From the NCBI GenBank assembly GCA_903856085.1, contig CAIOAT010000047.1, positions 84,634 to 148,633 on the forward strand: 64,000 nt of DNA, written 5' to 3'. The notes beneath the pieces were generated by a model. That model was not told the DNA's origin. It worked only from the letters and a program-made list of their open reading frames with translations, and made no database searches. Within the stretch, counting starts at the first letter, position 1. Each line of letters opens with the position of its first letter. Below, in pieces: positions 43,101 through 64,000 of this stretch. Both the position numbers and the translations under genes were made by a program. Origin of the DNA: Candidatus Omnitrophota bacterium. Lineage in GTDB: Bacteria > Omnitrophota > Omnitrophia > Omnitrophales > Aquincolibacteriaceae.

Positions 43101-46100
43101 TCGGCCTGGGCCTGCGCGGCGAGATCCTTTACCATTTGCGCATTGCTTTGGAGGAGGTCCAGAGGATCCACGCCCCAAGCGGCAAAGAGAGCGCGAAGGT
43201 CCGTCAAATTAACCATCCCGTCGCCCGTGATATCGAACTCATTGACTTTCGAAACCATTTCTTCGATGCCTTGGATATCGCCGGCATCGATCACGCCATC
43301 GCCGTTGCGATCCACCGAAATGATGTCTTCGGAAGTCATGCCGTTTTTAACGGCCTCTACGATCTTTGTGAGCTTTTGAACATCCTCCCCATTGACCACC
43401 GAATTCCTCGTCTGGTCGGCCTTGGCCCAACTCGCGATGCTCTTCGCCAGATTAAGGGCATCCTGAGCATCGATCTTGCCGTCTTTATTGACGTCGGCTT
43501 TTTCCACCTGCGCCGTCGGGAGACTCCGCTTGTAATAATCCTGCATACGTTCAAAATCGGCCGCGGTAATCTTGTTGTCGGCATTGACGTCCACGCTGTT
43601 AAAATACGAGTTATTGATAAGCTGCTGGTCATAACGCGTGACTTTGCCGTCGGCATCAATATCCGCCAGTTTCGCCCGGGCGATGATATCGGTCCGGGAC
43701 TTTGCAATATCAGTGGCAATACGCATCACAAGATCCCGCACCTTCTCACCGGCCACTGCCGTCACAACGACGCGCCCCGCAACAAGTTTCGCATTGAGAT
43801 CCGCAACCTTGGCGGACGCCACGGTCAGAGAATCATTGATCCCGGCCACGAAGGTACGCGCCGCAAGCTCCAATACCTTCAGACTGTTGAGTGAGCCCTC
43901 GTCGATCTTCAGGGCATCCTCAAGAGGATTTAGACTTGCGTCGGAATAAGTCGTCACGCTCGACGCCAATTCTTTCGCGAGCTGCCCAAGTGCTTCCCAG
44001 ATCGCCATGCCCTTGGTCACGCGGAATGCGATCGCCGGCGATATCGCCGCAAGCTTCGCGTTGATGCCGGCCACTTCTTCTTCCGCGACGAATCTCAAGC
44101 CCGCCAGCTGTTTGGCCCGGTCCATACCCGCAAGCACCTTCGCAACCGCCTGGACCACCACATTGGCATTGACGCCAAGCAAAGGTTCGATGTCATTGAT
44201 CTGCAGGTCCGTGATGGGGATCAGGCTGTCATAGACCGTCTTGGCGGAAGTGACGATCGCGACATCCTTTTGATCGACCTTGCCATCTCCGTTCACGTCG
44301 ATAATATCGTTGATGACGTTCGCGAACGCGTCCACATCCGCTTGATCGAACTTGCCGTCATGATTCACATCAGCCCGAACAAACGCGTCTGTCTTTGTTC
44401 CCGCGTTCGACAAAGTCGAGATGGCCTGCCCCAGCTGCTGATAACGTTTGGCTTCCTCGACGAGCGCGATATCCTTTTCATCCACCACGCCGTCATTATT
44501 CACATCCTGGATCATGTAATTGGCGACGGCTTTCTTAAGCGCGATCCAGTCGCTCTCGTCGATTTGAGGCTTGAAAGGCAGCGTAAGCGCTGACGCCGTC
44601 GCAACTCCGTCCAGAAATTCGGGCGTTTTTGTGGAATCGACCAGGACACTCGAGTTCAACTGATCGGCCGGGACTTCAAAAACGGCGCGATCGAGATTCT
44701 CTTTGCCTTTAGTCAGCTGAGAATAGATCTCCGCTCGGGTTCCGTCGGACAGCATGTACGTGTCGGCGCGGATTCCCTTCGCAGCATCGTAGACATACTT
44801 CACAAGACCCGCCACCGCGGTTCCCGTAAGGAGGACCGTATAGATCGGCTGCTTGGAGGTGTTGAGCGAAGTGCGCTTGGTCCACTGGCTCGAGGTAATG
44901 CCGCTCACAAGAGCGGCGATCTCGCCGCTAATATTGAGACTGGTCTGCTGGGCCGGCGTAAGCGTATAGGTGTCCACAAGCGCAGAACCATCCGTCTCTA
45001 TGGCGTAGCGATGGAAGAGCGTCGGCTTTGTGCCGAGGGCGTCGCCCGTATGATTAAACTCGACGGAATACAAAGGATTGCGTTCGGAATCGAGATAGAC
45101 GCGTGCGGTCCGGGCGCTCGTCGCAAGCAAAGACAAACTTGTGCGTAACGCCGCCGCATCACCAAGGTTCTGCGTGAACGCTGCCTTCTGGTCCGCCGAC
45201 AAGACGAACTGATCGGCGGCAATGATCGCGCTCGTCGGGTCCGCGGCATCTTTCCGGATGAACTTATAGGCCGAGACGATCGATCGGTCGGTGCTCGACA
45301 GAACGAGCGAGTACTGGAGGTTGCCGCTCGCGTCATTGACAAACAGACTCGAATCCTTATTGATGTCATAAATAGGATTCAGGAGATCGGCTTTGGTGAA
45401 ACCCGTCTCCTTGCTTTCCATGATATCCGCTATGCGAACGACATCGGCATTATCGATCTTGCCGTCGCCGTTGACATCTCGGACTGACGTAAAGGTCGGG
45501 ACCCCGTTTGCGATCGTGATCTGGTATTGACCCGCGCCGATGCCGGCGATGGTCCCCGAGGCCACTTGGCCCGCGATCACCGTCCCGTTCAGCGCCACAT
45601 TCTTCAGGTTCGTGCCATCCACAGTGTAGGTCACTGTCCCGTCTGGGATCGTCGCTGTGGTGGTAGTTCCGGTCACGGGCGCAGCGACTTGGATCTTCGC
45701 CAGAGCCGCCGCAAGCATATCGCGATCGGAGAGCGTCACACCGCCGGTCTGATCGATATTCGCCTTGGCTATTTCGCCGGGCTCGGGAATCTTGAGCAGA
45801 TTGGCCGGATTTGCGTTGTATGCTTGGATGTAATCGATCACAGCCTGAACTCTCAGAAGATCCGCCTGACCCAGCTCATTTCCACCGGCAAGATTCAGAG
45901 ACTGAGGATTCTGATAAATGCTCCGGTAGAGATTGAAGTCGTCGTTATTCACCTGCCCGTCGCCGTTAAAATCAAGCATTGCCTTAAGTCCGGTGGTACC
46001 GTCCGCGCCGTAAAGGACGGTACCCCAATCATTGATGCTCGAAACCCCCGTGAGGCTTTCCGGGTGCAACAGATCGACCGCATCTTTCATGGCCTGCAGG

Positions 46101-49100
46101 CGGTCGACATCCTTCTGGTCGATCCAGTTGTCCCCATTTATGTCCATCTTATTGCTCAAACCTTGGACATAGGAACTCACATCGTGCGGCTCAACCAACA
46201 TCACGGACCCGTCAGTGGATAAGCGCACCTCGTAGACCACTGTTCCGAGGGTCACTCGCTGGATGCCGTCGGCGCCAATCTGCGACTTCGTACCGTTGAA
46301 GGAGTACGTGCCGTCGTCATTCTTGGCATAAGTGTAATTAGTGCTGTTCAATGCAAGGACCGTCGGGCTGACCACGGTGCTCTCGGCATGCTGCTGGGTC
46401 AGCGTGACACGCCCCCATGTATCCACGGCCAAAAGATAGATCTTACCGCCGATCGTGACATGCTTATCGCCCAACGTATTTTTAGATTCTTCCGGAACGC
46501 CGGAGAGTTTGGACTCGGTAAATGTGTAAACTCCCTGATTATCATCAGAAATGGTGAATTCGCGGCCGTCCACGATGAACTTCGCGGGGTTGAGGAGCGC
46601 CTCATAATTCTTGAGATCGGCCTCATCGACGATGCCGTCCTTATTGGTATCCGCTTTGAGATAATCCTGCAGGGTGAAGCTCGTCCCGAGAGCGAAGTAC
46701 TGGGTGAGCTTTTCGGCCTGAGCGACATCCGCCTCGTTGACCACGCCATCATTATTCAGGTCATACTCATAGAGCTTGTTGGCTGTCGCGAGAAGCATGG
46801 CCTTGTCCGTATCGTCGACCTTGCCGTCTTTATTCACATCAGCCAGGGCGAGATCCTCGGGGGTAATATTGAGGCTGAAGTATTGCTGCATGTCATTGGC
46901 GAGGCTGAGATCGAGCGAATCAAAAACCCCGTCCCCGTTCAGATCGCGATCGGCCATCGCCGCGATCGACGCCTCCAGAGCATCAACATCTTGACCGTTT
47001 ACCTCATTGTCACCATTAACATCAGCGCGATTGTAATCTTGCGGCTGGATCACTTCGCCGCGACCGGCCGCATCCTTGACCGATTGGACCTTGGCAAGCA
47101 GCGCCGTCAACGCAGCGGGAGTCAGATCGGCTGTGGTGATCTGAGCACCCGCGTTTTCGGGCTTTTGATTATAATTCGCCACATAGCCCTTAAGCGCAGC
47201 CAAGCCATCGTTCAGCTTTGTCAGGTCATCGCCAGTGACCGTTCCGCTGCCGTCCAGATCCGCCACGGCCCCTTCGTAATATTGTTTTTTGTTTAGATCG
47301 TACACTTCGCCGCCGATCGTGACGCGGAGAGGCGCTGGATTACGCGTGGTGGTTTCGACTTTGAGATTATCGAACTTCGCGGTCGTTTCGGTCGCCAGAA
47401 GCGCGATGCGCCCGGAGGTGAGAGCCGTATCGGTCACCGAGGCCACCTTCTTTCCGTTCACCCACACGTTGATCTTGCCGCTGTCATACTCGATCCGGAC
47501 CTTGGCCGTCTGGTCTTTCGCCCACGTGAAGCCGAGCGGGACCTGGACCGAAGAGTTCACCGGCATATCCTGGACATTTCCGGCGACTTTCTTACTGAGC
47601 GAAAGCATGCCGGTTTGGCCATTGATGGAAAGCTGGTAATAATTGTTGGCGTCCTGGTCATTGAACCGGATCTGGACCTGGTCGCTTCCTTCGGTCGTCA
47701 CGACATCCGTCTCGAACGCGAAAGCGCCCTGCGTCACAAGGGACGTCAGAAGCTCGGTCGATTCCCCGGCCGTGGTCGTCTTGATCGTTTTGAGCACGTT
47801 GTTGGAAACCACCCAGAGGCCCGACTTGATAACCCAGTCCGGAGGCATGACATTGGAGTCGAAATTGGTATTCACGACCGACGTCAAGATCTCCGGGTTC
47901 GTCGTGTAGGTCACGGACGGATTCGTGGCAAGAACGAAAGTGTAAGTCGAATCGGCGTTCTTCCGTATCCAGTATTCCTTGCCGTCCAGGAGAATGCTTT
48001 CATCATACTTGTGAGCGCTCACGTTGTCGTACTGCTCGACCAGCTTGATCGTTCCGGTAAAGCTGTCGCGCAACACGTTATAGATCTTGTTCTTGATCTC
48101 CACCCGGTTGGAGGTGGCGTTCGTGGTAAAGGTTTTGTAGCCGTCAAAAAGCAGGTAACTTCCGTCGCCGCGGTCGGTCACCCGGTAATCAACACCCTCA
48201 AGACTGATGAGCTGGTCAGCCGCGGTCACCGACGTCTCGAATTTCTGGATAAGCGACAGTCTGCCTTTGTCACGGTCGAAACGGACGAGATATGTTTTAC
48301 CGTCGAGCGTGATCTCGTTGGACTTCGGATCGCTTATCTGCCCGTTGATCACATAATTGCCGGCGACGTTGATACTCCAAGTGAACTTAATCTTGGCTTC
48401 TTTGTTGTCAGCGGAACAATTATCGCTCGGCGGATCGCAGATGGTGCCATTCATAGCCTGAGGACCGCCGTCCGCTGAGGAGTAATTCTTGTGCGGCTCC
48501 ACAAGCTGGATCCCGATCTTCCGCGTAAGATCATTTTGGATCTGGTACGAAACATTATCCAATGTGATAAAGCGAGATGCCGCATCTCCCTTGACCGCCA
48601 CCTTGGTGTCTTTGTCGGTAAAGGTGAGAGAACCGTCACGGTTTTCCGTCACGTAGTAAGTGCGGCCCCCTATCTCAAGGACCTGATCCGCCAGCGTTTC
48701 GCTTACGAGATGACGTTCGATGAGACTCACGAAGCCGGTGAAAGGATCCTGCGCGATATCATAGAGGATGCCGTCGAGCTCCACGCTCGGCTCAGTGTCA
48801 TAACTCTTCACCTCGGGTTGGCCGCCTAACACAAAACCAAACTTCATGTTCCCGTGATCGATGACGCCGTAAGTCTTGCCCTTAACTTCGATCACCTGAT
48901 CAAAGCGGTGCTGGCTCGCCTTGGTCGCTTCGACCAGCGTGACCACGCCGGTATCTTTATCCACCTGGATCTGGAACACCGTGCCGCGGATCTCGACCGT
49001 CATGTCCGCATTGCTTGTGGCGCTCTCGGTTCCGGATTTAAATGTGTAAAGATTCCCAACAGGAACCACATCCCAGGTGGCGCCAAGCAATTTCAGGACA

Positions 49101-52100
49101 TAGCCTTCTTTGCGAACACTCGTGTCAAACGGCGCGATCAGCTTCACTTCACCCGATCCCGAGATTTGCAGGTCATAGAGCACGTTATTGATCGTGACCT
49201 GTTGCTTGCCGCCGGCCACCACGCTCGAGCTTGCGCTGTGAACGCCGTCGGTGAAGGTATAAATGTTCCCGACCTTCAGATACGAATACTCCGTGACGAG
49301 AACTCCGCCTGTCACAGGATTGACTCCCTGAAGATCGATCTTGGTGGCAGTCACTCGTTCGCTTTCCGAATGGCGCTCGACTAGCTTGTCGAGCTTCTGC
49401 GATCCGTCAAAATAGAGGTCGTAGATCTTGTCGCCGATCTTGACAAAGTTGACGCCCAGGAAGCTCCGGTATTCGCTGTCCGCGTTGTAGAAGGTGTAAG
49501 TCCCGTTGTCGTTCTTGCGGGTCAGATATTCAGTGCCTCCGATGATCATCTTGTCGGTCCCGACCCACTCGCTGCGAAGCGCCGTAGTGCCCACCAAGGA
49601 CAACCTCTCGCTCGTCACGACGTTGAGCTGCTGGAATTTCATCACATCCGTGATCAATTGGACATCCGCATCATTGACCACACCGTCGCCGTTGAGGTCC
49701 TTCTTGAGGGCGAGGGCCGATTCGATCAATTTATAATCCATTTCCGTTATAAGGCCGTCGCCATTCACGTCGATCTGCGCAAGTTCCGACGGTGACAAGG
49801 AGCCGGTGGCTTGCATCTGCTGGACCGTCTGCTGAAGCGCGATGGCATCGTCATAATTGACCTGCCCATCCCCCAGATAGTCCGCCTCGACCAGAAGCGA
49901 CGCGTAATTTGTGAGCGAATCATTAAGATTCGCCACATCATCCGCGGTGATCTTCTTATCGCCGTTCACATCGGCCCGAGCCAACTCATCCGCAGTGATA
50001 TTCTCCTTCAGGCCGTCAATGATCGCACCGAGCCTGGTGACATCCGCCGTATCCCCAACGCCGCCCCGTCCGTCGATATTAAAGGTCGTGTTCAAAACCT
50101 TCTTCATATCCTCGACGTCATTCTGGTCGACTTTGCCGTCCCCATTGATATCGGCCGCCTTGAGTTCCTTGGGCTGTTTTGCCTGCCCCAGCTTGAGAGC
50201 TTTCAGGATGTCGTCCATCGTGGCAAGATCGCCGTCGTCAAATTTCCCGTCGCCATTGAGATCGTACTTGCTGCTGGCGGTTACATATTCCCTGAGCGCA
50301 TTCGCGTCATTGTAATCGACTTTTCCGTCATGATTGACGTCGGCAATCGTCACTTTTTCAGCGGTGACTTTTCCCGGCTGCTGATCGAGCGTCCACCCGT
50401 CGATCGGGTTGTCGATCAGATCCTGAACCGTGTGCTTCACGCCATCGATCGTGATGACGTTTTCACCGGTCGTGCGGTCGATCTCACTTGTGATCTTCTC
50501 GGTTCCGTTCGATATGGCGTATGAGGCGTTCTGAAGATCGAGAATGGTCCAAAGACTATCGACGTCCAACTGGTCCACCAATCCGTCGCCGTTCACGTCC
50601 TGATAGTTCCTGGCAAGACGGCGCAGCTCGGCGCGGTCGGCGTCATCGAATGTACCGTCTTTATTGACATCCGCACGGGCGAGATCGCGCGGCTGCGGCA
50701 GATGGAGGTTCATGACGTCCTTGAGGCTGTAAACCTTGCCGTTCACCATGATGACGGGCACCGGTCTCTTCACCCGGCTCGAAAGCGTATAACCCGTCAA
50801 GAGGGTCGGATCATCGGTCAGGTCGATCACTGAGTACGTCTTCCCGTTGACCGTGATGATGTCCTCGCCGGTCACGGCATCGATCTCGCTGTCGATGCGC
50901 TCGGTGGTGCCATCCTTCGTCACGAAATAGGAAAAATCATTGCTGTAATAATAGGTTGTTCCGTCGAAGAGTGTGTACCCCTCTTCATTCTGCGTCACTT
51001 TATATTTGACGCCGCCCAGCGTGATCATGTTCTCCTCGGATTGCGCTTCTGACACCCATTCGACCAACTGGATGCCCTGCGCCACGCCTTCATCCAGGAT
51101 CTTGAAGAGCACTCCGTTGAGAGTGACCGTTGGCACCAGGATCGACCCGTCGGATTTCAGCTCGCTTGTTATTGCGGCGCTGTCGTTCTCTCCCCGGATC
51201 TCATAGCGGTCACTGCCCAGGCGCAGGATCATGTACTTTTTCCCCTGCAACTGAACCACGGAATCCGCCTTCTTGACGCTCACCACATTGGGGATATCCA
51301 GGCGGATGTGCCCGGTGACCTCGTCTTTGACGACCAGCGAGGTGATCCCGTTGATCACGATAAGCCCGGACACCTTGTCGCTCGTATACCGGTTCAGCCC
51401 GTCAAACAAACTGTAGGAGCCGTCCCCGTTATCCGTGGTCTGATAGAGATCGCCGTTCAACTCAATCACAGAGCCCGTAACGTCGGTGGTGCTTGCGACC
51501 CCCTCCACAACAGCTACCTTCGTGGCCTTGAGCAGGCCATTGGGGAAAGAAACGTTATAGACAATATTTCCGATCGTGACCTTGTTGTCCGCGACCTGGA
51601 AAACTTCACCGACATCGTTTGTCAGGGCCCACTTCCCGGCGGACAGGGTCACAAGATATTTTTTATCATTTAAAAGAATGAGCTGCTTGGCGACTTCGGC
51701 GAGCGGCTGAACCGAACCTGCCAACGAGATGCGTCCGCCTTCGAGAGCGACAATATCGAAATCAGACCCGTTCACAGTAATCAGAGTCCCGTCGGCATTT
51801 CCTACAAAGCTCGCGCCGGAGAGAAGGTCCTTCATCTGATAGGCTCCGGTAACCAATTTTGAAACGGAATATTCGCGGCCCTGGAGCTTCAAGATTTGAA
51901 TAAATTCAGGCCGCGCTTCCGTCAGAGAAAAACCGCTCGTGGCATTGATCGCGTAGAGGACGTTCCGGATCGAGATGGTCTTGCCGTCCGCAGAGCTCCA
52001 GTAAGTCTCTGTTCCGTCTGACAATTTGAATCCATCGCCGACAGTCTCCACCGTGTAATACTTATTCCCAAGAAGAAGTGCGTCCTTCAGCCCCAGAACT

Positions 52101-55100: not shown

Positions 55101-58100
55101 TTCGAAGCCGTGTCATAAGCCCAGTTATATGTTTTGCCGAGCACGCTGATCGAGTACGAACCATTCAAAGGACTTTGAATCGTCACAGCTTCCAGTGTCG
55201 GGTTGGCGGCCGTTCCTTTGAGTTCATACAACCGGGAATCGATCTCAACGATCGTTTTACCGCTCGGCACCCAGGCCGGTGGGGCCGCGACAAACTTGAA
55301 TTTGAAGGGCACGTCATCTTGAACCAGGACGCTAAAATCACAACTGACATTTCCAAGCGTTATCGGGCTGTTCACCGTGGAAAGCGGATAGATATAATCC
55401 TGCCAGACCACAGCACCATCAGCCGTATGAATGCGGCCATACCAGTAATTTTCCCCATAAACGTCCCAGTCAATGTTGTACGTTGTTCCGAGCAATGAAA
55501 AGGTCGTCGAGAAACTGTCGGTCGGGATATTCACCTCTGCGCTCGAAACGCGATCCGTGAAAAAGTGGATGGGCGTGCCGTCGCCGTTCGTGATGACGAT
55601 CTTTCCGGCCACATCCTTCATCTCGTAATAATTGTCACCACTCTTGACGACCCGTGAAGTCAGATCCTGAGTCACCGGTCTCACAAGGGTCGCCTCGACA
55701 ATTCCCGAGGCATTCTTTGTGATCGTGAAGGTCGAACCGGACAAATCGATCGTGCCGTTTTGCAGAATCGTCTGGGTACTGCCATCCGGCATCTTGAAGC
55801 CCATGCTCCCGTTGACATTCATCGTAATTTCGTACCGCGTGCCGTTATAAAACAGGTCTTCTTTGGGCAGAGACATGGTCGCCACAACGCTTTGAACAAG
55901 ACTGAGCGACCCGTCCCCGGCCGTCTGGATCCCATAGAGAGTACTCGGGAATTGGACCGACTGACCCGCCGCATCTGACGTGATGGGAGCAACTCCCGCG
56001 GCAAGCGGCGTAAAAACATAGTGCGTCGAGACCTTCGTAACGCGGTACACCACCCCGTCGACCTTGATCTCGTAAGCCGAAGTCATGTGGGCCGAGACGT
56101 CATCGGATTGGATGCTGATCTGACCCTCGGGGCTTTGCTGGATCGAGAACTTCACGTTCGACAGCGTAATCTTGCCATCCGGCGAATAGATCTCGGCCCC
56201 CGTCGCCTTGTTCACGAACCTGTAACGCGTGTCCGGCTTATCAATCTGATACGTGATGCCCTCGAACTGCAATTCCTGAATAATGGCTGTCACATGTGCG
56301 CTCTTGCGGACCGTGCGGATCTCGATATACCCGTCGGTGGTCGTTTCCACTTCATAAACCGCCCCTCCAAGTGACACCGTACCGTCAGTCGTGAGAACCG
56401 GCTCCTGGCCCTGAACCGTGAAGGCGTAGTTACCGCCGCCGAGATCACTGACCATATAGGAAACGCCCTCGAGCCGTATCTCTTGATCATTAAGAACCTC
56501 GGCGATCTCAGGCAGAGCATCGACCTGGATCATGTTCAGGATCGGATTGTAAGTCACGGCAAACGGGGTCAAACCAGGAATGGTGAGACTAGTAATGTTA
56601 TTGCTGGTGACGGTGGTGTAAATCTTGCTCGTGTCACTTACCGGCGAAAAGCTCCACTCGCCATCCCACACGCCGTTAGTGAGTTCCTTGACCACCAGAT
56701 AATCCTGACCATTCACGGTGGTAACGAATTGGGCCGCCTGAACGCTTGTTTCATAATCTTGCTTAACCTGAAGATCGTTCAAGGTCGTTCCCGTAACGAG
56801 GAAAAGCTTTCCGTTCAATGTCACGGTGTGGCCCGATGCGGAAGTCTCACTCGTAAAAGTATGCGTACCGTCGCTAAACACAAATTCGCCGCCGACAAGG
56901 GTCACGGCATAATTCACTCCGCCGGCGCTCAGCACGGTTTGGGAAGCAGCTGTGGCGGATTCCGGGTTCTTCGAAAGGTCCACGATCTCATACGTCACGG
57001 GCTTGGGAACGATCGAGATCGCACCGGTCGAAGGATTCTTCGACACGCGATAAACGGTATCATTCATAATCAATTCCTGGTTCTCCGTGCTCGTGAAAGT
57101 GCCCACCGGCGAGTGGAAGCGATAAGTCCCGTCCCCGAGATCCGTCACGGTATAAAGCCTGCCGCTGACAAGGATCGCGTCGGACTTGGCCGCCGTTGCA
57201 GTTTCGGGCGAACGTTCAATGACCTTTCCGATCTCTTGCGGGAAATAAGCCTCCAACAGGCTCTTATTGAGTCTCATGAGTTCCGACACGGACATGTCGT
57301 TGGTCGTAGTCTTCGCTTTTGTCAAAAGAGCCTTGGCTACGTCATCGAGTTTGTCGGTGATTGTCGTACTGGCGCCGGCGGCCTGATAATCCGAATCCCG
57401 CATCCTAACTTTCAGAATGGCATTCACAGCATCTACCCATTCGGTCTTGGCAACGGTTGTCGGAGGCACGGCATTAAGTTTCGCCCTGATCGCCGCAAGT
57501 CCGATCGCAGTACCGTCCGCTCCTTTATCCCATCCTTCGGCCAAACCATTCCCCTTCAGGGAGTTGGAATTCAAATTCCCCTTCAGGTCACTCGTGGTTA
57601 ACCTCAGGGAACCCATTTCGATATTAAAAATCTGGGAATCCTCGCCGTCGATCTTCCCATCGCCATTCAGGTCGGCACGAGCATCCACAATCGCGCTTCT
57701 CAGGAATATGCCGCGCACTTCAAGCTGAGAACCGTAGGAACTCGGATAACCGGAGAACGGCTGCGTCCCGTTGCTTGTGAGCGGCTTGCCATCGCCGTAG
57801 AAGTCCGACACGGCAAAACGGATCACGTGGTGGCCTCCGGTCAGATGGAGAGTCGTGCTCACTTCATTGAAGTTCTGTCTCAGGGCTGAAAGGTTCATCA
57901 CGGTGCGCGGCTGAGCCTCGCCGTCCACGAACACGCTGATCTCAATCGTGGAATCATACCCATCGGGGAACTTCAACGCATTTTTCGCATTGAATCCGAC
58001 CACATAATCCCCAGCATTCTCCACATCAAAACCGTAGCTGAATTTCTTGTCCTTCCGCTGAACGATGAGACTTTCCCCGTCCATCACAAATGCCGGTGAC

Positions 58101-61100
58101 GAAGTGTCGCTCGCCGCATAGATGTCGTTGGGGTTGACAGTCGACTTGTAATAATCGCCGGTCAAAAGAAGACCGGTCGACGGCACACGGCTGAACGCGC
58201 TGCCATCTTTAAGCGCCAGCGCCATAACCGCCTGATCGTCGGCGTTCACTTTTCCGTCCAAGTTGAAATCGCCGATCTTCTGTTCCTTCAGGGTCAGCGC
58301 TCCGCTGCTGTTTTTCCCAACCACGTAATGGCGACCGTGGAGCGTCAACTCACCGATCCCGTGGGAAATGAGCCCGGTATCTTCATAGGCATAGATCTCA
58401 CCGCTGGCAGTCTCCTTAAGGTAAACCGCGACCGGGGTAGTGTCCTTGAGAATCATAACTTTTTGGAGGTCGGACGTGCTGACCAGACGGTTCATGAGCA
58501 CCTCGACGTCCCTCGAATCGATCACGCCTTCTCCGTCGGAGCTGATATCAAGCGATGGGTCGTAATGCGCATCGCGGAAAAAGACGTTACTCACCGAGAT
58601 CCCGGTCCCAACGATAGGATTTTTCCAAACGAATTTGATGTCCCGTTTCGGCAAGTATGGCAAGCTCACCTTGAGGCTACCCTCAGTGGATAAGCCGCTG
58701 GCAGGAACATAGAATTGTCCGTAGGAAACGCCGCCGATCTGGACCTCGATGAGATATTGATAATCCGCCGGCATTGCCGCTAATTCAGTCGACGTCATAT
58801 CGGCCTTCGCCTGGAGGCCTATTTCATAAAGTCCCGAAACGGTCGCAGGGATTGGAACGTTGTCATAGGTAAGAGAGCTTTCACTGCACGGAGCCACATA
58901 GCAATGAGCGCGAACATCTTTGTAACCATTCGCAAAGCCGCTGCGATCGGACGTCCCCGCAAGAGACAGATCGCCGATCTTGCCCGATCCGACCGCCGAT
59001 TCCAAACGGGCGAGGTCCGCATCGTTAATGACACCGTCGTTATTTAGGTCATAGGGCAGATGTTCGACAAGCGTCACGCGCCCAGCGGCCGCCTTCACGA
59101 CCTCAAAATCCTTCCCTTCAACAGAGATTAACCCGTTAAGTTTCTGCGTGAAGACCTGGTCTCCTGCCCTGAGCTCCAAGCCACTTGCTGGGTACGCACG
59201 CAAGAAAACATTATCCAGTTTAAAGTTCTCCGGATAAGAATCGTTGTAAAGTCTGAGGGAATGAACGCCTTTTGTTAAATAGAACGGGACCGTCTTCCCC
59301 GCCGCATCACCCTGATTGATTGTGAACGAGCTGATCAATTTCGGATCATTGATAACCTCATTAGAATCTTTACCCTGGTAGGCTTCCATCACGAACGAGG
59401 CGCTCGAAACACCCGTCGCACCAAACTCATAAAAGCCGTCCGCAGGAACATCGATAGAGTAGCTAACGTCTATCCTGGAACCCTTGAAGACAAGACTCGA
59501 GTCTTCAGTCACAGGCACTGGATATACTTGCCAAGGCATCCCCGCGGATGGGGACAGATCTAACTCCTGAGTTCCCTGCTGACTGACCACGTAGGTCTTG
59601 TCGCCGATCTGGACAATCGTCTGGACCATGCTCTCCGAGGTTACCGGCATCTTGACCACCGACAAATGTCCGGACTCGTCGGCTTTGACTTGATACTTGA
59701 CCCCACCGAGCTCAAACGTATGATCCGCGCCCGCGACGATGCGGTCTTTTTCGAGCCGAACCGCCCCGGTCCGGGCATCTTTATAGACAGCGTACTCGAT
59801 TCCTCCCAAGACCACCGTGGAGCGAAGAAGCTCCCTACTGACCGCGCCCTGCCCGGCCACAAGTTGGCTCGTGACCCGCGGAACGTTGACCTCGCGCAAG
59901 AAAACCTGATCCAATCCAAAAGACGGCGTTTCAACCATCGGATCTTTAGGCGTCGCGGAAACCCTGATCGAATGAGACCCTTTTTCCAAGGAAAAGGAAC
60001 TCATCGTTTTCACTTCTTGATCCCCTGGATTGTAGTCGAACGACCCCACATCGATGCCGTCAATCGAGATAGAGACGCGATACGCGTCGCTCGGCTGGGC
60101 CTTGAGCCCAAATTCGTATGAACCGGCGTAGCTGACAGAAAAAGAATAATTTTCTCCATCGGATGCAGGCTGAGCAAATTCCTGGCGTTCCTGATCCGAG
60201 AACGCATAAGTCCCGTCCGCCTTCTGGGTCACTTCAAATGTCTTGTCTCCGATCTTGAGCAATCCGCCGGTCACATAAAGCACTTGGCCGCCGTCAAGCT
60301 TCATGACCTCATAACTGCCGTCTTCGAGCGTTGAAACGGAATATTTCGAGCCGTCGATCTGAACGATCGTGGAAGACAGGTTCTGGCTCTCGGCATGGCT
60401 TTGGCCCAGGGTCATGTGGCCAGTCGCGTCTTTCCCTAGGATCAGCTGGAGACCTCCGAAGTCCGAAAGCACAACTTTTTGATCCGAGACACGGCTTGTC
60501 GCCACCGCGCTGGTGGTGAATTCCTGCAGATCAAAACCGCCACCCTGCTTTTCGGAAACGCTGTATTCATGCCCTGCGACTTTCAGAGTATTGGCCGCGA
60601 CCGGCATGCTGATAAACTTTTCATAGATAGCAAGATCTGCCGCATCCACGCGCTTATCGTGATTGAGGTCCAGTTTTGGATCAGCTCCCTTGAGAGAGAG
60701 ACCCTTGATCCTGACATCAGCAACCTGCTCGCCCTGCGAGACATTAAAATTGTTTACCCACTTGACCAAAAAGCTTTCGGCCCCGGTATTCAGGACTCCG
60801 GGAATATTCGCCAGAACCGTCTGATACCCGCCATTCTTCCACGGCACAACGATCGTCGTATCAACTCCGTCCCCCGTCACACTAAAAACGAGATCTTCCT
60901 TCGGGAACCCGTTGTCCCAACCAAGCGGGTAATCGACGCTGATATCAAAACCCAGAGAATATTGGCCGGGATCCAGGACGTTGAAAGTAGGTGCAAAAGT
61001 GACGCCGCTGTTCGTAAAGTGGGATATATCCCCTGCCTGAGCTATCGTCGTAGAGGCATCTCCATTCCAATACTCATCCCAGAGCATCAATCCAACAGCT

Positions 61101-64000
61101 CTTTCCGAATCACTGGTAATGCCGTCTCCGTTCAGATCGTAACCGCTATAATAATCAGGCGTTAATAAGCTAGCCGCAGTCAATGCCGAAGATCTCAAGG
61201 CCTGATCAAAATAATCCCGGTCCAACGAGTCGACGACGCCGTCACCGTTCAGGTCCAGGGAGAAATCCTTGAGATTGGCGTCGATGTCCACATAGACATC
61301 ATTAAGTCCGGAGAATTTTCCGTCCTGAGTCAGGACCTTATACTTCGTGCCGCCCAAAATGACAGAGTTTGTCGCAGGATCGCTCGGAACAGGCGCCGAA
61401 GCATCACCTTGCTTCGAAAAGCTGAAGCCCCCGCCCGGGGTCTTCGAGACAAAATAGGTCTGGCCATCGACCGTGAGATAAGTCGTATCCTGTTCGCTGG
61501 CATAGGCTGTCTTTAAATCCTTCTCATAGGCAATCACATCAGCTTGGGTGATCACTTTGTTGGCATCGCGGTCAAAAGCACCGTTCCAATTTGCGCTTTG
61601 AATAGTGACGTTTTTCATGGCGAAACTGGCGTTATAGACCTTATTGACCCATTCGATCCGGACCGTGTGCTGGCCGGCGGACATCGGCATGACGATCGAA
61701 GCCGAATTCCAAGAGGTAGAACTGGCGGGCACCGTAATCACACCTGAGGCATTCTGCATATCATCGATAAAAACAGCAAATTCGTAGTGATCAAAACCGG
61801 CCGGCAGCGTCCGGAAACTTCCATAATAAACACTGCTGGCATCAAAGTTTAATTGGTACTGTCCACCCTGAGGAGCATTGAATCCGAAGTCTGAATAATA
61901 CTCGGAGGTATAGTCGTTCGAATAAACCTGGCTATCCCTTGCCCCGCTATTTTCGAACATATTTGATTGGGCTTCGAATTGCGGGGTGAATTGTCCGGCG
62001 CCGACGCTGGCCGCGAGATCCGTCAGATCCTTCTGATTGATCTTGCCGTCGCCGTTCAGGTCGAGACCGGCCGGAGCACCGACGCGGGAAATATTCATCA
62101 CTTCCTTGCCATCCACCGTCGCAGGGATAAGCTCATAGGTGAATCCGCCGATGTCGTATTGCATGGTACCTGCGTTGGGCGAATATTCCGTCCCGTCTTT
62201 TAGCAGCTTGTAAGTACCGCCTTCCGCGGGCACGATAACGAAATCAGAACCGTTGATCTCCACGACCCGTGCGCCGCCAACCGTGATCTGGTGCGGCTTT
62301 TCTTGGGAGATCTCAAGCGACCCGGTCGCGGGATCGCGGAAAACGTAATAGTCCACGCCGGCGATCTTGAACTTACCAGTGCTATCCACCGCCACCGAAC
62401 CATAGCTGCTTCCGAGCGAGTAAGTGCCGTCGCCATTGTCCTGCACAAGATAATTATGAGAAACACCGTTGACCGTCACTTGATAGACATTGTCATTCAC
62501 CCGTGTGAGCGCCACTGGGGCTTCATTCAACTGCAGAGTCCCGTTCTTGAAATCAACTCCATACGGGATCCCCGCGATCACGGTCTGCGCGGCTGAGGGC
62601 TTGATATCATAAACATTTCCGCCGCCGTCCATCAACTGGATCATGGATTCATCCACACCCGCTGTCGCCGGATTGTCCGGCAATACCTGATAGAAATAGA
62701 CCTGGCCGTTCAACTCAAACGACTTCTCCTCAATAACTGAGCTATCATTGAGCTGTTCCGTAATCGTGACCCAACCGGTGCCGCTCTCGATCGGATCGAT
62801 GATATACACGTGCCCGTCAAGGAACACCTTTTTGGCAAAGCCGTCGGTCGTCACCGATTTGTCGCCGCTGGTAAACGTGACCCGGCGCGCGTCATCAACT
62901 TTGACCACATATTCTTTGCCGTTCACCTGGATGATCTGGCTTTCGGCCAAGGTGCTTTTGCTTGCGAGTTCCTTCAGCTTGTAAATCTTTGCGGAAGGAA
63001 TATTCGCAAGAAGATACCGTTTATCCTGGACCATCACATATTCGTGTCCGTCCGAGGCATCCTTGTAGGATTCGTACTGACCGGAAGGATCGACCACAAG
63101 ATAATGATCCCCGGATTTCCGTATGGAAAATTCGTGGCCGTCTACGGTGATCTTCTGGAACGGGCTTCCGAATGACGGCGATCCGGCGACGGCTTCCCCG
63201 GCGGCCAATGCTCCGACAGCGTAGCGCGTATTACCAATGACGACTTGGTCATTGAAATACACATATTCATTAAGAGTGTCGTCATACGCGGAACTCCGCT
63301 CAGCCGGCGGCAGAGCACTGCTTTGATAAGTGTTTACCCCATCGGTCAGAATATAGCGGGTAATACTGTTCTCAACGACCTGGCGGATCTGGTAAGTCGC
63401 GTCCCCGATACGGATCGAGTTCGAACCCCAATCCGCGGGATCGCTTTCTTTGGGTGTTTCGTTCGCCCCGATGACCTCGGAATCAAAAATCGCTTGATCT
63501 TTTTCGTCGACCGTATAATCCCCGTTCAGATCGGCCGCCAGCATATTGTGCTCCGCCATGAACACATCCTTCACGGAGATGCCCGGAAGACCATAGATCT
63601 CGTCTGGGCTGTACTCCTTGGCGAATTTCCAGACGAGCTTCAGGTCATGATCGCCCGCGGCCAGATTGACCGTGAGGAAACCTTTTTCGGGCGTACCCAA
63701 CGAGTCGGGCCGGATCGCGAAATTGCCGTAGAGTTTTCCGTCGACATAGACATCAAACTGGTAATCGAGTTCAAGCAGCTGACTGGACTTGGCAGTAACG
63801 TCAGCCTTTTCGCCGAACATCGCCTTCGACATATCCGCAAAAGTTTCCGCCGAGACTCCGACGTCGTAGAGACCGCCCTTGGCAAGATTCATGGTGTAAT
63901 TCAACTGGTTGACGGTCTTGGCGTCATAGCCCGCGGGATTCGCCCGGTTATCGCCGCGGAGACTCGGCACCGTGAACACGGAATCGCCCTGAGCGTAAAA
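1..64000 (-). CDS. Giant multidomain protein, partial at both ends: at least 21,333 codons in the window, with no start or stop codon inside it. Codon phase is lowest codon coordinate = 2 mod 3 on the minus strand.
   Basis: Hand translation of the minus strand at about 20 sites gives protein-like sequence in this one phase. Sites: 1-1480, 2072, 3932, 4043, 4535, 5138, 5441, 7646, 10382-10558, 12815, 14041, 16556, 18850, 19346, 20072, 20341, 24416, 28800, 30056, 35041, 42541, 43469, 44273, 45452, 53000, 57650, 61232, 61500-64000. Codon-by-codon scans of 1-1480 and 61500-64000 found no tta/cta/tca triplet in this phase, so no minus-strand stop. The ORF track has 56 minus ORFs, all in phases 0 or 1 and none in phase 2, consistent with phase 2 being occupied throughout. 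The long plus-strand ORFs (17846, 19979, 23039, 26309, 33239, 35309, 41948, 46388, 47615, 52931, 56483) are all plus phase 2, the in-phase antisense shadow. I did not scan every codon of 1480-61500, so a single ORF rather than several same-phase ORFs is probable but not proven. Confidence 0.72.
2030..2130 (-). other. Possible ParB/Srx-fold (ParB-like nuclease) motif segment.
   Basis: The translation LHLPDGSIAIDNGHHRAFLFDQAGLKTIPA is encoded around 2075-2092. The D-x-G-H-H-R pattern resembles the ParB/sulfiredoxin-superfamily active-site motif. This rests on one motif only, so confidence is low. Confidence 0.3.
3930..5650 (-). other. SecA-like DEAD motor ATPase domain (NBD1, PPXD-like insert, NBD2) embedded in the giant ORF.
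   Basis: Four SecA hallmark motifs are present in SecA order and spacing. Motif I is AELLTGEGKTY at 5441-5467 (SecA: MKTGEGKTL). Motif II is VIDEADSILITLAKTPLIISSGSG with DEAD at 5138-5149 (SecA: DEVDSILIDEARTPLIISG). Motif III is GMTGTA at 4535-4552 (identical to SecA). Motif VI is ATNIAGRGTDIK at 4043-4075 (SecA: TNMAGRGTDIKL). Further down is RGRAGRQGDVG at 3932-3961 (SecA: RGRSGRQGDPG). Spacings are about 103 aa from I to II, about 200 aa from II to III, and about 157 aa from III to VI. The 200-aa gap matches a PPXD-like insertion. Confidence 0.8.
6400..9350 (-). repeat. Coding tandem leucine-rich repeats of about 33 aa (LRR-like or pentapeptide-like solenoid).
   Basis: The verified translation at 8290-8480 is ISGRLDLTKLNGNTLTSALKVLGDVGVDTTHLRIEGTLDVKLVTDGVLSNLINLV. 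The translation at 7510-7666 is GRTSLADLARLCDLVGGADFSGIEMTGTFDVARLGDLSTLRDLKTMLDSRVDMRG. Both show periodic L/I/V spacing with G and D at fixed positions. The plus-strand shadow ORFs at 6357-9422 are correspondingly Ser/Arg/Leu-rich and repetitive. Confidence 0.55.
9400..10700 (-). other. Hydrophobic membrane region with at least one clear transmembrane hairpin at 10382-10552.
   Basis: The verified translation at 10382-10558 is HNVIATGVAIIVGAIAVVLAVVKISAAVAAGTFLVAGGWIGVAIVAGVLLTGGLIALAY. This is two hydrophobic stretches of roughly 20+ residues separated by KIS. A further hydrophobic segment, VIDFIGFAAEAAFLGFTS, is verified at 10150-10230. Additional candidate helices lie between 9400 and 10150 but were not all verified. 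Confidence 0.6.
10700..18300 (-). other. Large non-repetitive region of unknown function, about 2,500 aa.
   Basis: Protein-like in-frame translations were sampled at 12815 (GFEAGGHVPSQGSFNGGIQMIVDDFANSM), 13981-14100 (YLERVYNTHVGGTGSKNVLSTSSATTGIDLVNGKFDEAEK) and 16556 (SLSAAASLNTNGVNWNTNV). I recognised no family-specific motif. Confidence 0.4.
18300..20500 (-). repeat. YD/RHS-like repeat region (coding).
   Basis: Verified translations are LLTVDRTGNVERYSYMRDTSGNIMKDSTGKPIETYILHS at 18850-18960, EIYSYTTYYRDANDRLVQTTAVAYPQTGV at 19265-19350, and VTNYAPDGSVLTTNYSWYGTDGALQRVDYMRKDSYQITGQ at 20281-20400. All three fit the YD-repeat pattern x-Y-x-Y-D-x-x-G-R/N-L/I. Confidence 0.55.
20500..29000 (-). 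other. Mixed region: coiled-coil-like A/Q/K/L-rich segments plus small Cys-containing and beta segments.
   Basis: Verified samples are AAANHTQAAWRQLWVDYYN at 24416 and PDYPDECGTYECITI at about 28770-28815. The intervening translation is alanine/lysine/glutamine-rich. Confidence 0.4.
29000..43200 (-). other. Very long alpha-helical low-complexity region (A/L/Q/S/T/K-rich), about 4,700 aa; a putative stalk or fibre.
   Basis: Verified in-frame samples are VLKNQLLSVQTEMGNLRNLIANEVQKPLSQMED at 29960-30060, GSASSAMLAEKILRELEAA at 35041-35100, and TRALELKDRAGNISAAALD at 42541-42600. Nucleotide composition is dominated by gcc/gcg/ctg/cag codons on the minus strand. Confidence 0.5.
43210..44510 (-). 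repeat. Cluster of dockerin/EF-hand-like Ca-binding loops (D-x-N-x-D-G-x-I/V-D).
   Basis: The loops are FDITGDGMV (43211-43237), VDRNGDGVI (43289-43315), DVNKDGKID (43469-43495), VDVNADNKI (about 43570-43600), ADIDADGKV (about 43640-43670), IDVNGDGKVD (44273-44302), ADVNHDGKF (about 44347-44375), and QDVNNDGVV (44481-44510). Confidence 0.7.
45450..46150 (-). repeat. Ca-binding loop cluster.
   Basis: The loops are DVNGDGKID (45452-45478), LDFNGDGQV (45950-45976), and MDINGDNW (46124-46148). Confidence 0.6.
46620..47265 (-). repeat. Ca-binding loop cluster in dockerin-like pairs.
   Basis: The loops are ADTNKDGIV (46627-46653), YDLNNDGVV (46738-46765), ADVNKDGKV (46818-46844), RDLNGDGVF (46923-46949), ADVNGDNE (47004-47030), and ADLDGSGTV (47236-47262). 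Confidence 0.65.
49680..50690 (-). repeat. Dense cluster of at least 10 Ca-binding loops (dockerin-like tandem pairs).
   Basis: The loops are DLNGDGVVNDADV (49678-49716), QIDVNGDGLITEMD (about 49745-49786), DYLGDGQV (about 49861-49885), ADVNGDK (about 49945-49965), ADINGDGK (about 50135-50158), YDLNGDGKF (about 50228-50255), ADVNHDGKV (about 50315-50340), QDVNGDGLV (about 50565-50592), and ADVNKDGT (50651-50674). Confidence 0.7.
50700..64000 (-). repeat. Tandem beta-rich modules with a recurring hairpin motif and single Ca-binding loops between modules; the region 47300-49650 has the same character.
   Basis: A verified module at 52990-53110 is ANSDTAYTDFQEIAFGGTTYRIDKIAGGEVKLLSPAPG. The recurring motif is h-G-G-x-x-Y-x-V/I-x-x-x-x-D-G-x-x-x-F. 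Single Ca loops are ADLNGDGKI (57650-57676), GDFNLDGKV (58246-58272), YDLNNDGVI (about 59019-59048), GYDLNGDGI (about 61114-61140), LDLNGDGVV (61232-61258), LDLNGDGKI (62038-62064, out of frame, see the frameshift entry), and ADLNGDYTVDEKD (63503-63541). The contiguous verified translation of 61500-61981 and 62102-64000 is beta-strand-like (Y/T/V/S-rich). Confidence 0.55.
61982..62090 (-). other. Compensated +1/-1 frameshift segment inside the giant ORF; one Ca-binding repeat is read out of frame.
   Basis: In the ORF phase, this segment translates as GDEYFPRRCSGRSRPERRRQDQSEGSDGSRGQRRRRTIHP, which is Arg-rich and unlike any flank. The adjacent phase (lowest coordinate = 1 mod 3) translates as VMNISRVGAPAGLDLNGDGKINQKDLTDLAASVGAGQFTP, a canonical copy of the window's Ca-loop motif. 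The upstream flank ...YELIPATVDGKE and the downstream flank EFEAQSNMFENSG... are in the ORF phase. The two junctions sit at plus-strand homopolymers: ggg/aaa at 62085-62090 and gggg at 61982-61985. The ORF phase contains no stop across the segment, so the ORF stays open. Confidence 0.6.

Follow-up and report, generated by a model that had tools for sequence, protein, structure and literature searches.

What is a short aspartate-rich motif doing dozens of times in one bacterial protein? The question is raised by a 64,000-nucleotide stretch of DNA from a Candidatus Omnitrophota bacterium (GenBank assembly GCA_903856085.1, contig CAIOAT010000047.1, forward-strand positions 84,634 to 148,633; hereafter the window), in which the motif recurs throughout nt 43210-64000. 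A sequence-only reading of the window had described more than 45 dockerin- or EF-hand-like calcium-binding loops in that range. The analysis supports, at the level of sequence, an identification as dockerin-type Ca2+-binding loops. The encoded protein is probably a membrane-anchored giant of the 'Dockerin-type' class described in Omnitrophota (West-Roberts et al., 10.1101/2023.11.21.568195), and the region its N-terminal part, in which the loops would serve as structural connectors and clamps, stabilised by Ca, within a stalk that is extracellular and binds glycans.

The minus strand of the window, from nt 2 to 64000, is a single stop-free open reading frame (ORF) of 21,333 codons with both ends open; the longest open stretch in the other five frames is 507 codons. 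As the ORF fills the window without a start or a stop, the gene is longer than 64 kb. Residues were numbered so that residue i ends at nt 64000-3(i-1), and nt 43210-64000 therefore corresponds to residues 1-6931, the N-terminal third of the protein part visible in the window.

Number and identity of the loops

The exact motif, D-x-[ND]-x-D-G-x-[IVL]-D, was present 14 times in the window, with 12 occurrences within residues 1-6931. A wider pattern, D.[DN].[DNS]...[DNTS]..[DE], gave 40 matches in the whole protein compared with 1.5 after shuffling. A profile of the loop and its following helix (hmmsearch) identified 37-38 segments in the protein, with none scoring above zero in 20 shuffles. A position-specific scoring matrix (PSSM) scan at a score of at least 8 identified 39 segments, 33 of them within residues 1-6931, compared with 0.2 per shuffled protein. 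The motif is thus real, on the minus strand and in the frame of the giant ORF, and chance or low complexity as the source of the loops was ruled out by the shuffles. Approximately six degenerate loops (residues 810, 1817, 4642, 6092, 6866 and 6923) were recognised by eye or by alignment, and residues 1-6931 hold 33 clear loops, or ~39 when the degenerate ones are included. The earlier count of more than 45 in this range was an overstatement; ~45 is reached only when six clear loops outside nt 43210-64000 (residues 9819, 9843, 9880, 9904, 10237 and 13262) are added.

The four loop clusters of the earlier reading were found at the expected positions: residues 6499-6935 (nt ~43196-44506), 5953-6186 (nt ~45443-46144), 5581-5795 (nt ~46616-47260) and 4444-4779 (nt ~49664-50671). 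The second had been called dense, a description that does not suit three clear loops and one degenerate loop in 230 residues. Isolated loops had been traced as far as nt 63541, and the outermost was indeed located at residue 157 (nt ~63530). The helix-like segment reported after each loop was borne out by both AlphaFold2 (AF2) models described below, in which a helix follows every loop.

The loop comprises 12 residues, D1-x-N3-x-D5-G6-x-[VI]8-[DN]9-x-x-D12, and runs into a helix. Among the 39 clear segments, the consensus was D1 (39/39), [VL]2, N3 (36/39; N or D in 38/39), G4, D5 (38/39), G6 (32/39), K7, [VIF]8 (38/39), [DNTS]9 (39/39), no consensus residue at positions 10 and 11, which were the most variable, and D12 (37/39), followed by hydrophobic residues at positions 13, 16 and 20. 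All the Ca-ligand positions are thereby kept. Aspartate rather than glutamate at position 12, with the loop passing straight into a helix, is the mark of the dockerin 'F-hand' as opposed to the canonical EF-hand.

The search with the Dockerin_1 profile (PF00404) that the sequence-only reading had proposed was strongly positive. E-values were 5.8e-65 for residues 3401-7000, 3e-16 for residues 1-3500 and 3.8e-13 for residues 6901-11800. The individual clusters scored 113.2, 68.3, 30, 98.2 and 56.0 bits, in five, three, one, five and three stretches, respectively, against a Pfam cut-off of 22.9 bits. The strongest stretches spanned positions 2-57, 3-52, 3-56 and 3-56 of the 57 profile positions. 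By sequence, the best PDB matches were cellulosomal type I dockerins: 1ohz_B aligned with both loops of one domain (loops 5686 and 5721), and a profile of the array matched 4fl4_A with an E-value of 5.6e-10. The same profile matched the double dockerin of the C. thermocellum S8 protease (8x39/8x3a) over four consecutive loops (E 9.8e-9).

Could the loops instead belong to canonical EF-hand sensors or buffers, or to another calcium-binding repeat such as thrombospondin type 3, FG-GAP, RTX or Excalibur? EF-hand_1/6/7 and FG-GAP gave secondary matches on the same loops, and EF-hand proteins were present among the PDB profile matches. On every cluster, however, Dockerin_1 outscored each EF-hand model two- to threefold (e.g., 113 vs 36 bits), the canonical EF-hand profiles (PF00036/PF13499) included, and the glutamate typical of EF-hands at position 12 was found in only two of the 39 loops. 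The FG-GAP match was limited to 15 of 37 profile positions, in a 15-residue loop match. No family match to thrombospondin type 3, RTX or Excalibur was detected at E<=0.01 in the 21,333 residues, cysteine is nearly absent (0.11%), and each loop is followed by a helix. We consider an identity other than dockerin very improbable.

Tandem and split dockerins

Within the clusters, the loop-to-loop distance is bimodal, either 24-26 or 35-37 residues, and the same is true of the Omnitrophota homologues P0001, P0002, P0004 and P0008. The stretches matched by Pfam Dockerin_1 are always in the 35-37 phase. A loop acts as the second of its domain when 'xAD' and a short helix precede it, and as the first when it is preceded by Tyr, Lys or Ile and then Asp. 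Because the spacing is bimodal, the Pfam matches keep the 35-37 phase and first and second loops differ in the residues before them, we read the clusters as putative type-I-dockerin-like domains of ~61 residues (loop, helix, short helix, loop, helix), arranged head to tail and free of linkers, with 35-37 residues between the loops of a domain and 24-26 between domains. An AF2 model of residues 5652-5810, built from an alignment of 12 in-phase rows from the window and its homologues, showed a short helix, a loop, a 15-residue helix, a loop and a 15-residue helix, repeated (mean predicted local distance difference test (pLDDT) score of 74.9, predicted template-modelling (pTM) score of 0.35).

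These domains share with type I dockerins (PF00404; C. thermocellum XynY, 1OHZ_B, and GH9, 4FL4_A) the two 22-residue loop-and-helix segments, the pattern of Ca ligands with Asp12 among them, the 35-37 residues between two loops and the full-length profile matches above the Pfam cut-off. Type I dockerins occur as a single C-terminal module of an enzyme, whereas those of the window number in the dozens, are internal to one chain and are either head to tail or split by an insert. They differ from type I dockerins further in that positions 10 and 11 hold no conserved recognition pair, that no cohesin was detected, and that the host is not a cellulolytic Firmicute. Tandem dockerins are on record, from triple to septuple in other bacteria and as the double dockerin dDoc_0689 of the C. 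thermocellum S8 protease (8X39/8X3A; PMC12484212). The domains of the window resemble these in standing directly in tandem. They differ in that the known arrays comprise 2-7 domains at a protein terminus and are bound by scaffoldin cohesins, whereas the arrays here hold at most ~5 domains and recur inside a giant protein.

The earlier reading also placed single loops between beta-rich modules. When the stretches around these loops were aligned, they were instead found to be paired, in five copies of a unit composed of a loop and helix, a beta-sandwich of 120-170 residues and a second loop and helix. As the loop pairs flank the beta-sandwich, those of residues 1-2140 appear, from their sequence, to be the halves of dockerins split by an inserted domain that resembles carbohydrate-binding module (CBM) families 6 and 35. 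Joining the two halves of residues 1900-2140 in silico gave one Dockerin_1 stretch that covered positions 2-51 of 57 and scored 32.3 bits, above the cut-off. The AF2 model of residues 1900-2140 had a beta core with pLDDT values of 80-90, and a Foldseek search with this core returned CBM6, CBM35, CBM36 and CBM4 jelly rolls (E ~5e-5, template-modelling score of ~0.5 on the target). The insert is thus like the CBM6/CBM35/CBM36/CBM60 jelly rolls in fold and unlike them in sitting inside a dockerin and in reaching no Pfam CBM cut-off; among the copies in the window, the best match was to CBM60 (E 0.019).

The split unit is also present in P0001, P0002, P0007, P0008 and P0012. Searched against 1.84 billion representatives, a profile of the unit matched 1,968 proteins with E<=1e-3, of which 276 had E<=1e-10; both loops were covered in 39 of the best 150. 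Pfam CBM_6 and CBM60 were found in relatives whose match was limited to the beta part and which have no flanking loops. Names were available for 17 of the 20 best representatives that contain the unit: 15 belonged to Omnitrophota and one to Candidatus Uhrbacteria, and one name was incomplete. The Uhrbacteria protein (P0026, KKW34662.1), attributed to a metagenome-assembled genome (MAG) of the Patescibacteria (candidate phyla radiation), carries a full-length split unit at residues 646-823. Barring a mis-binned contig, the unit thus also occurs outside Omnitrophota.

The region also holds beta-hairpin repeats. Their motif, hh-x-[NDG]-G-x-x-[YF]-x-[VIL], was found 21 times compared with 0.9 in shuffles, and a looser form 44 times in residues 1-6931 compared with ~1.8 expected (5.4 per shuffle of the whole 21,333 residues). 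The earlier reading had the loops and hairpins alternating regularly. The hairpin motif itself was confirmed; one-for-one alternation was not seen, as the hairpins run together, for example in residues 2276-4417, where there are no Ca loops at all. The ~44 hairpin motifs lie in runs of ~35-40-residue repeats on the minus strand at nt ~46450-63150 (residues 280-5850), and the same repeats are present in the homologue P0003. No Pfam or NCBIfam match was obtained for the hairpin repeats, which are possibly the 'antiparallel beta-helix' that has been predicted for the Dockerin-type giant protein class. The possibility that the hairpin motif is a degenerate dockerin loop (the 'VNGK.Y' strings) was rejected, as the register of the motif is shifted by one residue and the ligands are absent.

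The giant reading frame and its relatives

The features of the protein are listed in Table 1. The hydrophobicity scan found one strongly hydrophobic segment, which divides the loop-bearing N-terminal ~17,800 residues from the C-terminal part, with every loop on one side. A weak hydrophobic peak at residue 7246 (score 1.84) is probably not a transmembrane helix. We infer that the loop-bearing N-terminal part is extracellular; this location, which the earlier reading had suggested, is consistent with all the loops lying on one side of the sole transmembrane segment. C-terminal to the segment, Pfam detected a SecA-like module and gave no match to the SecA scaffold and wing domain (SecA_SW). Compared with a genome collection, the SecA-like region matched only genuine SecA genes, from many phyla, at 28-30% identity, which shows the module to be related to SecA, though distantly.

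Table 1. Features of the giant reading frame in the window (residue and window nucleotide positions; numbers after 'loop' or 'loops' are residue positions)
Feature	Residues	Nucleotides	Strand	Basis
C-terminal part of a putative split unit: CBM6/35-like beta-sandwich, then loop and helix at 157, DLNGDYTVDEKD; first half beyond the window edge or absent	1-184	63449..64000	-	Alignment, PSSM
Putative split unit: loop 647, beta-sandwich, degenerate loop 810, DRDANKVITQAD	636-840	61481..62095	-	Alignment
Loop pair 916/955, spacing 39; 955 shared with the next split unit, as its first half	914-975	61076..61261	-	Pfam Dockerin_1 stretch
Putative split unit: loop 955, beta-sandwich, loop 1111	945-1140	60581..61168	-	Alignment, Pfam
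Putative split unit: loop 1651, beta-sandwich, loop 1817 (degenerate, two-residue insertion)	1640-1845	58466..59083	-	Alignment, Pfam
Putative split unit: loop 1911, CBM6/35-like beta-sandwich, loop 2110	1900-2140	57581..58303	-	Pfam, AF2, Foldseek
Cluster of 10 loop-and-helix segments: 4444, 4468, 4554, 4580, 4617, 4642 (degenerate), 4677, 4707, 4744, 4768	4436-4800	49601..50695	-	5 Dockerin_1 stretches, 113 bits
3keto-disac_hyd (formerly DUF1080) jelly-roll domain, between loop clusters	5388-5548	47357..47839	-	Pfam
Cluster of 6 loops: 5581, 5660, 5686, 5721, 5747, 5784	5570-5810	46571..47293	-	PSSM, Dockerin_1, AF2, 1ohz_B
Loose group of loops: 5953, 6010, 6092 (degenerate), 6175	5945-6200	45401..46168	-	PSSM, Pfam
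Loops 6499, 6544, 6568; Ala-rich helical stretch; loops 6780, 6804, 6836, 6866 (degenerate), 6897, 6923 (degenerate)	6490-6940	43181..44533	-	5 Dockerin_1 stretches, 98 bits
Tandem dockerins outside nt 43210-64000: loops 9819, 9843, 9880, 9904	9810-9930	34211..34573	-	Dockerin_1, 56 bits
Isolated loop and helix, DKNGDGKINEKD	10235-10257	33230..33298	-	PSSM
Isolated loop, DANGDGVFDEGE, without a clear helix after it	13260-13283	24152..24223	-	Profile and PSSM
Only strongly hydrophobic segment, 2-3 closely spaced transmembrane helices	17817-17872	10385..10552	-	Hydrophobicity scan
SecA-like module: SecA_DEAD (E 7e-33), SecA_PP_bind, P-loop_SecA	19492-19988	4037..5527	-	Pfam

Alanine, leucine, threonine and aspartate are abundant in the protein. 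A self-comparison showed internal repeats of at most 46% identity, mostly in residues 4000-5950, with the bulk of the protein non-repetitive. An assembly artefact through collapsed repeats is unlikely, because the internal repeats are of low identity only. Two further sets of repeats were noted on the minus strand: a tandem pair of ~120 residues with 36% identity at residues 11041-11307 (nt 30080-30880), and repeats of ~110-250 residues with 25-30% identity at residues 18287-19012 (nt 6960-9140), on the C-terminal side of the transmembrane segment. Across residues 7000-17800 (minus strand, nt ~10600-43000), ~10,000 residues that are Ala/Leu-rich and appear mostly helical, Pfam matches were obtained only in the tandem-dockerin group of residues 9810-9930, and two isolated loops are also present. 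An NCBIfam scan of residues 1-7000 matched no family. Three open frames of 400-507 codons lie antisense to the giant ORF on the plus strand (nt 35273-36793, 52847-54046 and 56375-57598) and are most likely shadow frames without a coding role.

The best homologues of residues 4301-5900 were partial proteins from Candidatus Omnitrophota MAGs with at most 32% identity, and no relative was found in a scan of JGI metagenome contigs with residues 1-330. The window itself was absent both from these contigs and from the species-representative genomes scanned with the SecA-like region. The sequence-only reading had called the number of loops unusual. This holds only in a relative sense, as Omnitrophota homologues are far denser and the protein class had already been described (10.1101/2023.11.21.568195); P0001, for example, has 68 loops in 2,796 residues, and the window is sparser.

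The closest view of conservation came from P0027, a 5,283-residue fragment from a Candidatus Omnitrophica MAG (HYZ84_00795), which is collinear with residues 3743-5822 (27% identity over 2,190 columns) and with residues 6777-7299. In the clusters at residues 4436-4800 and 5570-5810, 16 of 16 loops corresponded one to one, and the two degenerate loops were degenerate in both proteins. Between the 16 pairs, positions 1, 3, 5, 6 and 12 were identical in 11-15, compared with only 1-4 for positions 10, 11, 17 and 18. P0001 (HYZ84_07375) is from the same MAG as P0027, and both probably stem from a single giant gene that was fragmented. Two JGI proteins of ~2,150 residues (P0005/P0006, annotated as 'Ca2+-binding EF-hand superfamily protein', on contigs of up to 105 kb) are of a different type, in which unrelated N- and C-terminal domains enclose ~30 dockerin-like loops of great regularity (DFNGDGKIDxADL ... 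DSNGDGKVDGxDL).

The published Dockerin-type giant proteins of Omnitrophota carry many dockerin/EF-hand and thrombospondin type 3 repeats and DUF1080, and have a long N-terminal part free of transmembrane helices, C-terminal transmembrane anchors and then SecA-related domains without scaffold and wing (10.1101/2023.11.21.568195). In the AF2-based subunit proposed for them, a CBM35-like barrel is flanked by helices that together adopt a dockerin-like fold, and repetition of the subunit builds a ladder (10.1101/2023.11.21.568195). A 2026 preprint also lists giants that bear dockerins, with as many as 15 Pfam copies (10.64898/2026.06.07.730766). The protein of the window is similar in its length of at least 21,333 residues with 39 clear loops, in the absence of a transmembrane helix before residue 17817, and in the order of the transmembrane segment followed by SecA_DEAD and SecA_PP_bind, without scaffold or wing. 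It is also similar in its DUF1080 domain, in having as its nearest sequence relatives proteins of Omnitrophota MAGs, and in a predicted repeated unit, in five copies, of a CBM35-like barrel with flanking dockerin-like helices. It is unlike the published members in that the 21,333 residues visible here gave no match to the thrombospondin type 3 and discoidin repeats reported for the class, and in that its identity to any database protein is at most 32%. Because all the tested class features match except the thrombospondin and discoidin repeats, the protein is a long, uninterrupted further example of the described class and not a new one.

Possible roles of the loops

In the role that we consider probable, each loop would bind one Ca2+, and only at the Ca2+ levels found outside the cell would the small helical modules fold and become stiff. 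The tandem arrays would then be rigid connectors between the beta-rich modules, and the split form would be a Ca-dependent clamp that joins both ends of each carbohydrate-binding-like module. Together they would form a stiff stalk that binds glycans and serves in attachment to another cell or a polymer, in agreement with the role proposed for the class.

Several observations weigh against this role. Ca2+ binding and rigidity are both predicted from the sequence, and the packing of the two split halves against each other is presumed. In the AF2 model of residues 1900-2140, the flanking helices had pLDDT values of only 62-75. The tandem model, with its pTM of 0.35 and no ions, returned only dockerins and EF-hand proteins in a Foldseek search, none of them significant (best E 0.19), and its comparison with 1ohz_B gave a probability of 0.77, a template-modelling score of 0.51, a root-mean-square deviation of 13.8 Å and an E-value of 0.68. 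With two or three transmembrane helices, and an N-terminus beyond the window, the protein could have either membrane orientation. No match to TSP3 or F5_F8_type_C (discoidin) was obtained at E<=0.01 within the window, although the gene continues past both ends. Lastly, missing conservation at the cohesin-contact positions is weak evidence when the overall identity is 27%.

That last point bears on an alternative which the earlier reading had already raised, that these are working dockerins that dock to cohesins, whether those of other proteins in the same cell or those of a partner or prey cell, in a cellulosome-like multi-protein surface complex or in self-association. The strong Dockerin_1 homology and the cohesin-binding type I dockerins among the best PDB matches fit this, as does the match over four loops to 8x39/8x3a, since cohesin-binding tandem double dockerins are known in C. 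thermocellum (PMC12484212). The one-to-one conservation of the loops over a long divergence likewise shows each module to be of importance. Nevertheless, no cohesin family match was found at E<=0.01 in the 21,333 residues, and the split form is a dockerin built around an inserted domain. The variable positions also matter here. Where type I dockerins of C. thermocellum have a scaffoldin in common, their cohesin-contact positions are kept. In cellulosomal dockerins these are positions 10, 11, 17 and 18; in the giant protein, 10 and 11 are the most variable, and all four are the least conserved between orthologous loops. With no cohesin in the 21,333 residues and an apparently unconstrained contact face, cohesin docking is mildly disfavoured, and we regard it as unlikely.

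The loops might also serve mainly in export, as a Ca2+-triggered folding ratchet that is unfolded in the low-Ca cytoplasm and, once folded outside, prevents back-sliding. Dockerin folding is Ca-dependent, RTX repeats offer an analogy, and such a use would be compatible with a later structural role. The loops extend over ~13,000 residues on one side of the transmembrane anchor, and the protein has its own SecA-like module, which West-Roberts et al. (10.1101/2023.11.21.568195) proposed to export the giant protein itself. The distribution of the loops speaks against it: they are clustered, with none in residues 2140-4440 and very few in residues 7000-17800, so a ratchet would serve only part of the chain. 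We rate the ratchet as distinctly unlikely. A variant that combines these elements, in which the dockerin fold was recruited as a Ca2+-operated clasp and folding ratchet and not as a docking device, has an equally slim chance of being correct. The split dockerins would stay open until the chain arrives on the Ca-rich outside and would then close around the inserted beta modules, and longer runs of hairpins or jelly rolls may likewise separate orphan first-half loops from distant second-half loops (possibly residue 4768 from 5581, and 4468 from 4554 around one hairpin). If this were true, domain insertions into dockerins would be nested throughout the N-terminal third, and the clasp would explain the export, the block to back-sliding and the ladder-like stiffening of a chain of more than 21,000 residues.

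The reading of the loops as connectors and clamps leaves the overall picture of the Dockerin-type class unchanged. The giant proteins of Omnitrophota, which are ultra-small and probably predatory or episymbiotic, are among the largest predicted proteins known and are experimentally uncharacterised. The window provides a 64 kb stop-free, low-repeat example of the rarer dockerin-bearing type, whose published examples are fragmented by assembly. It adds sequence-level detail to a class known mostly from AF2: a head-to-tail period of 61 residues; dockerins that appear to be split by a CBM6/35-like module, whose halves recombine in silico to a Pfam-significant dockerin; and loop-by-loop conservation at 27% identity, in which the Ca ligands are constrained and the cohesin-contact face apparently is not.

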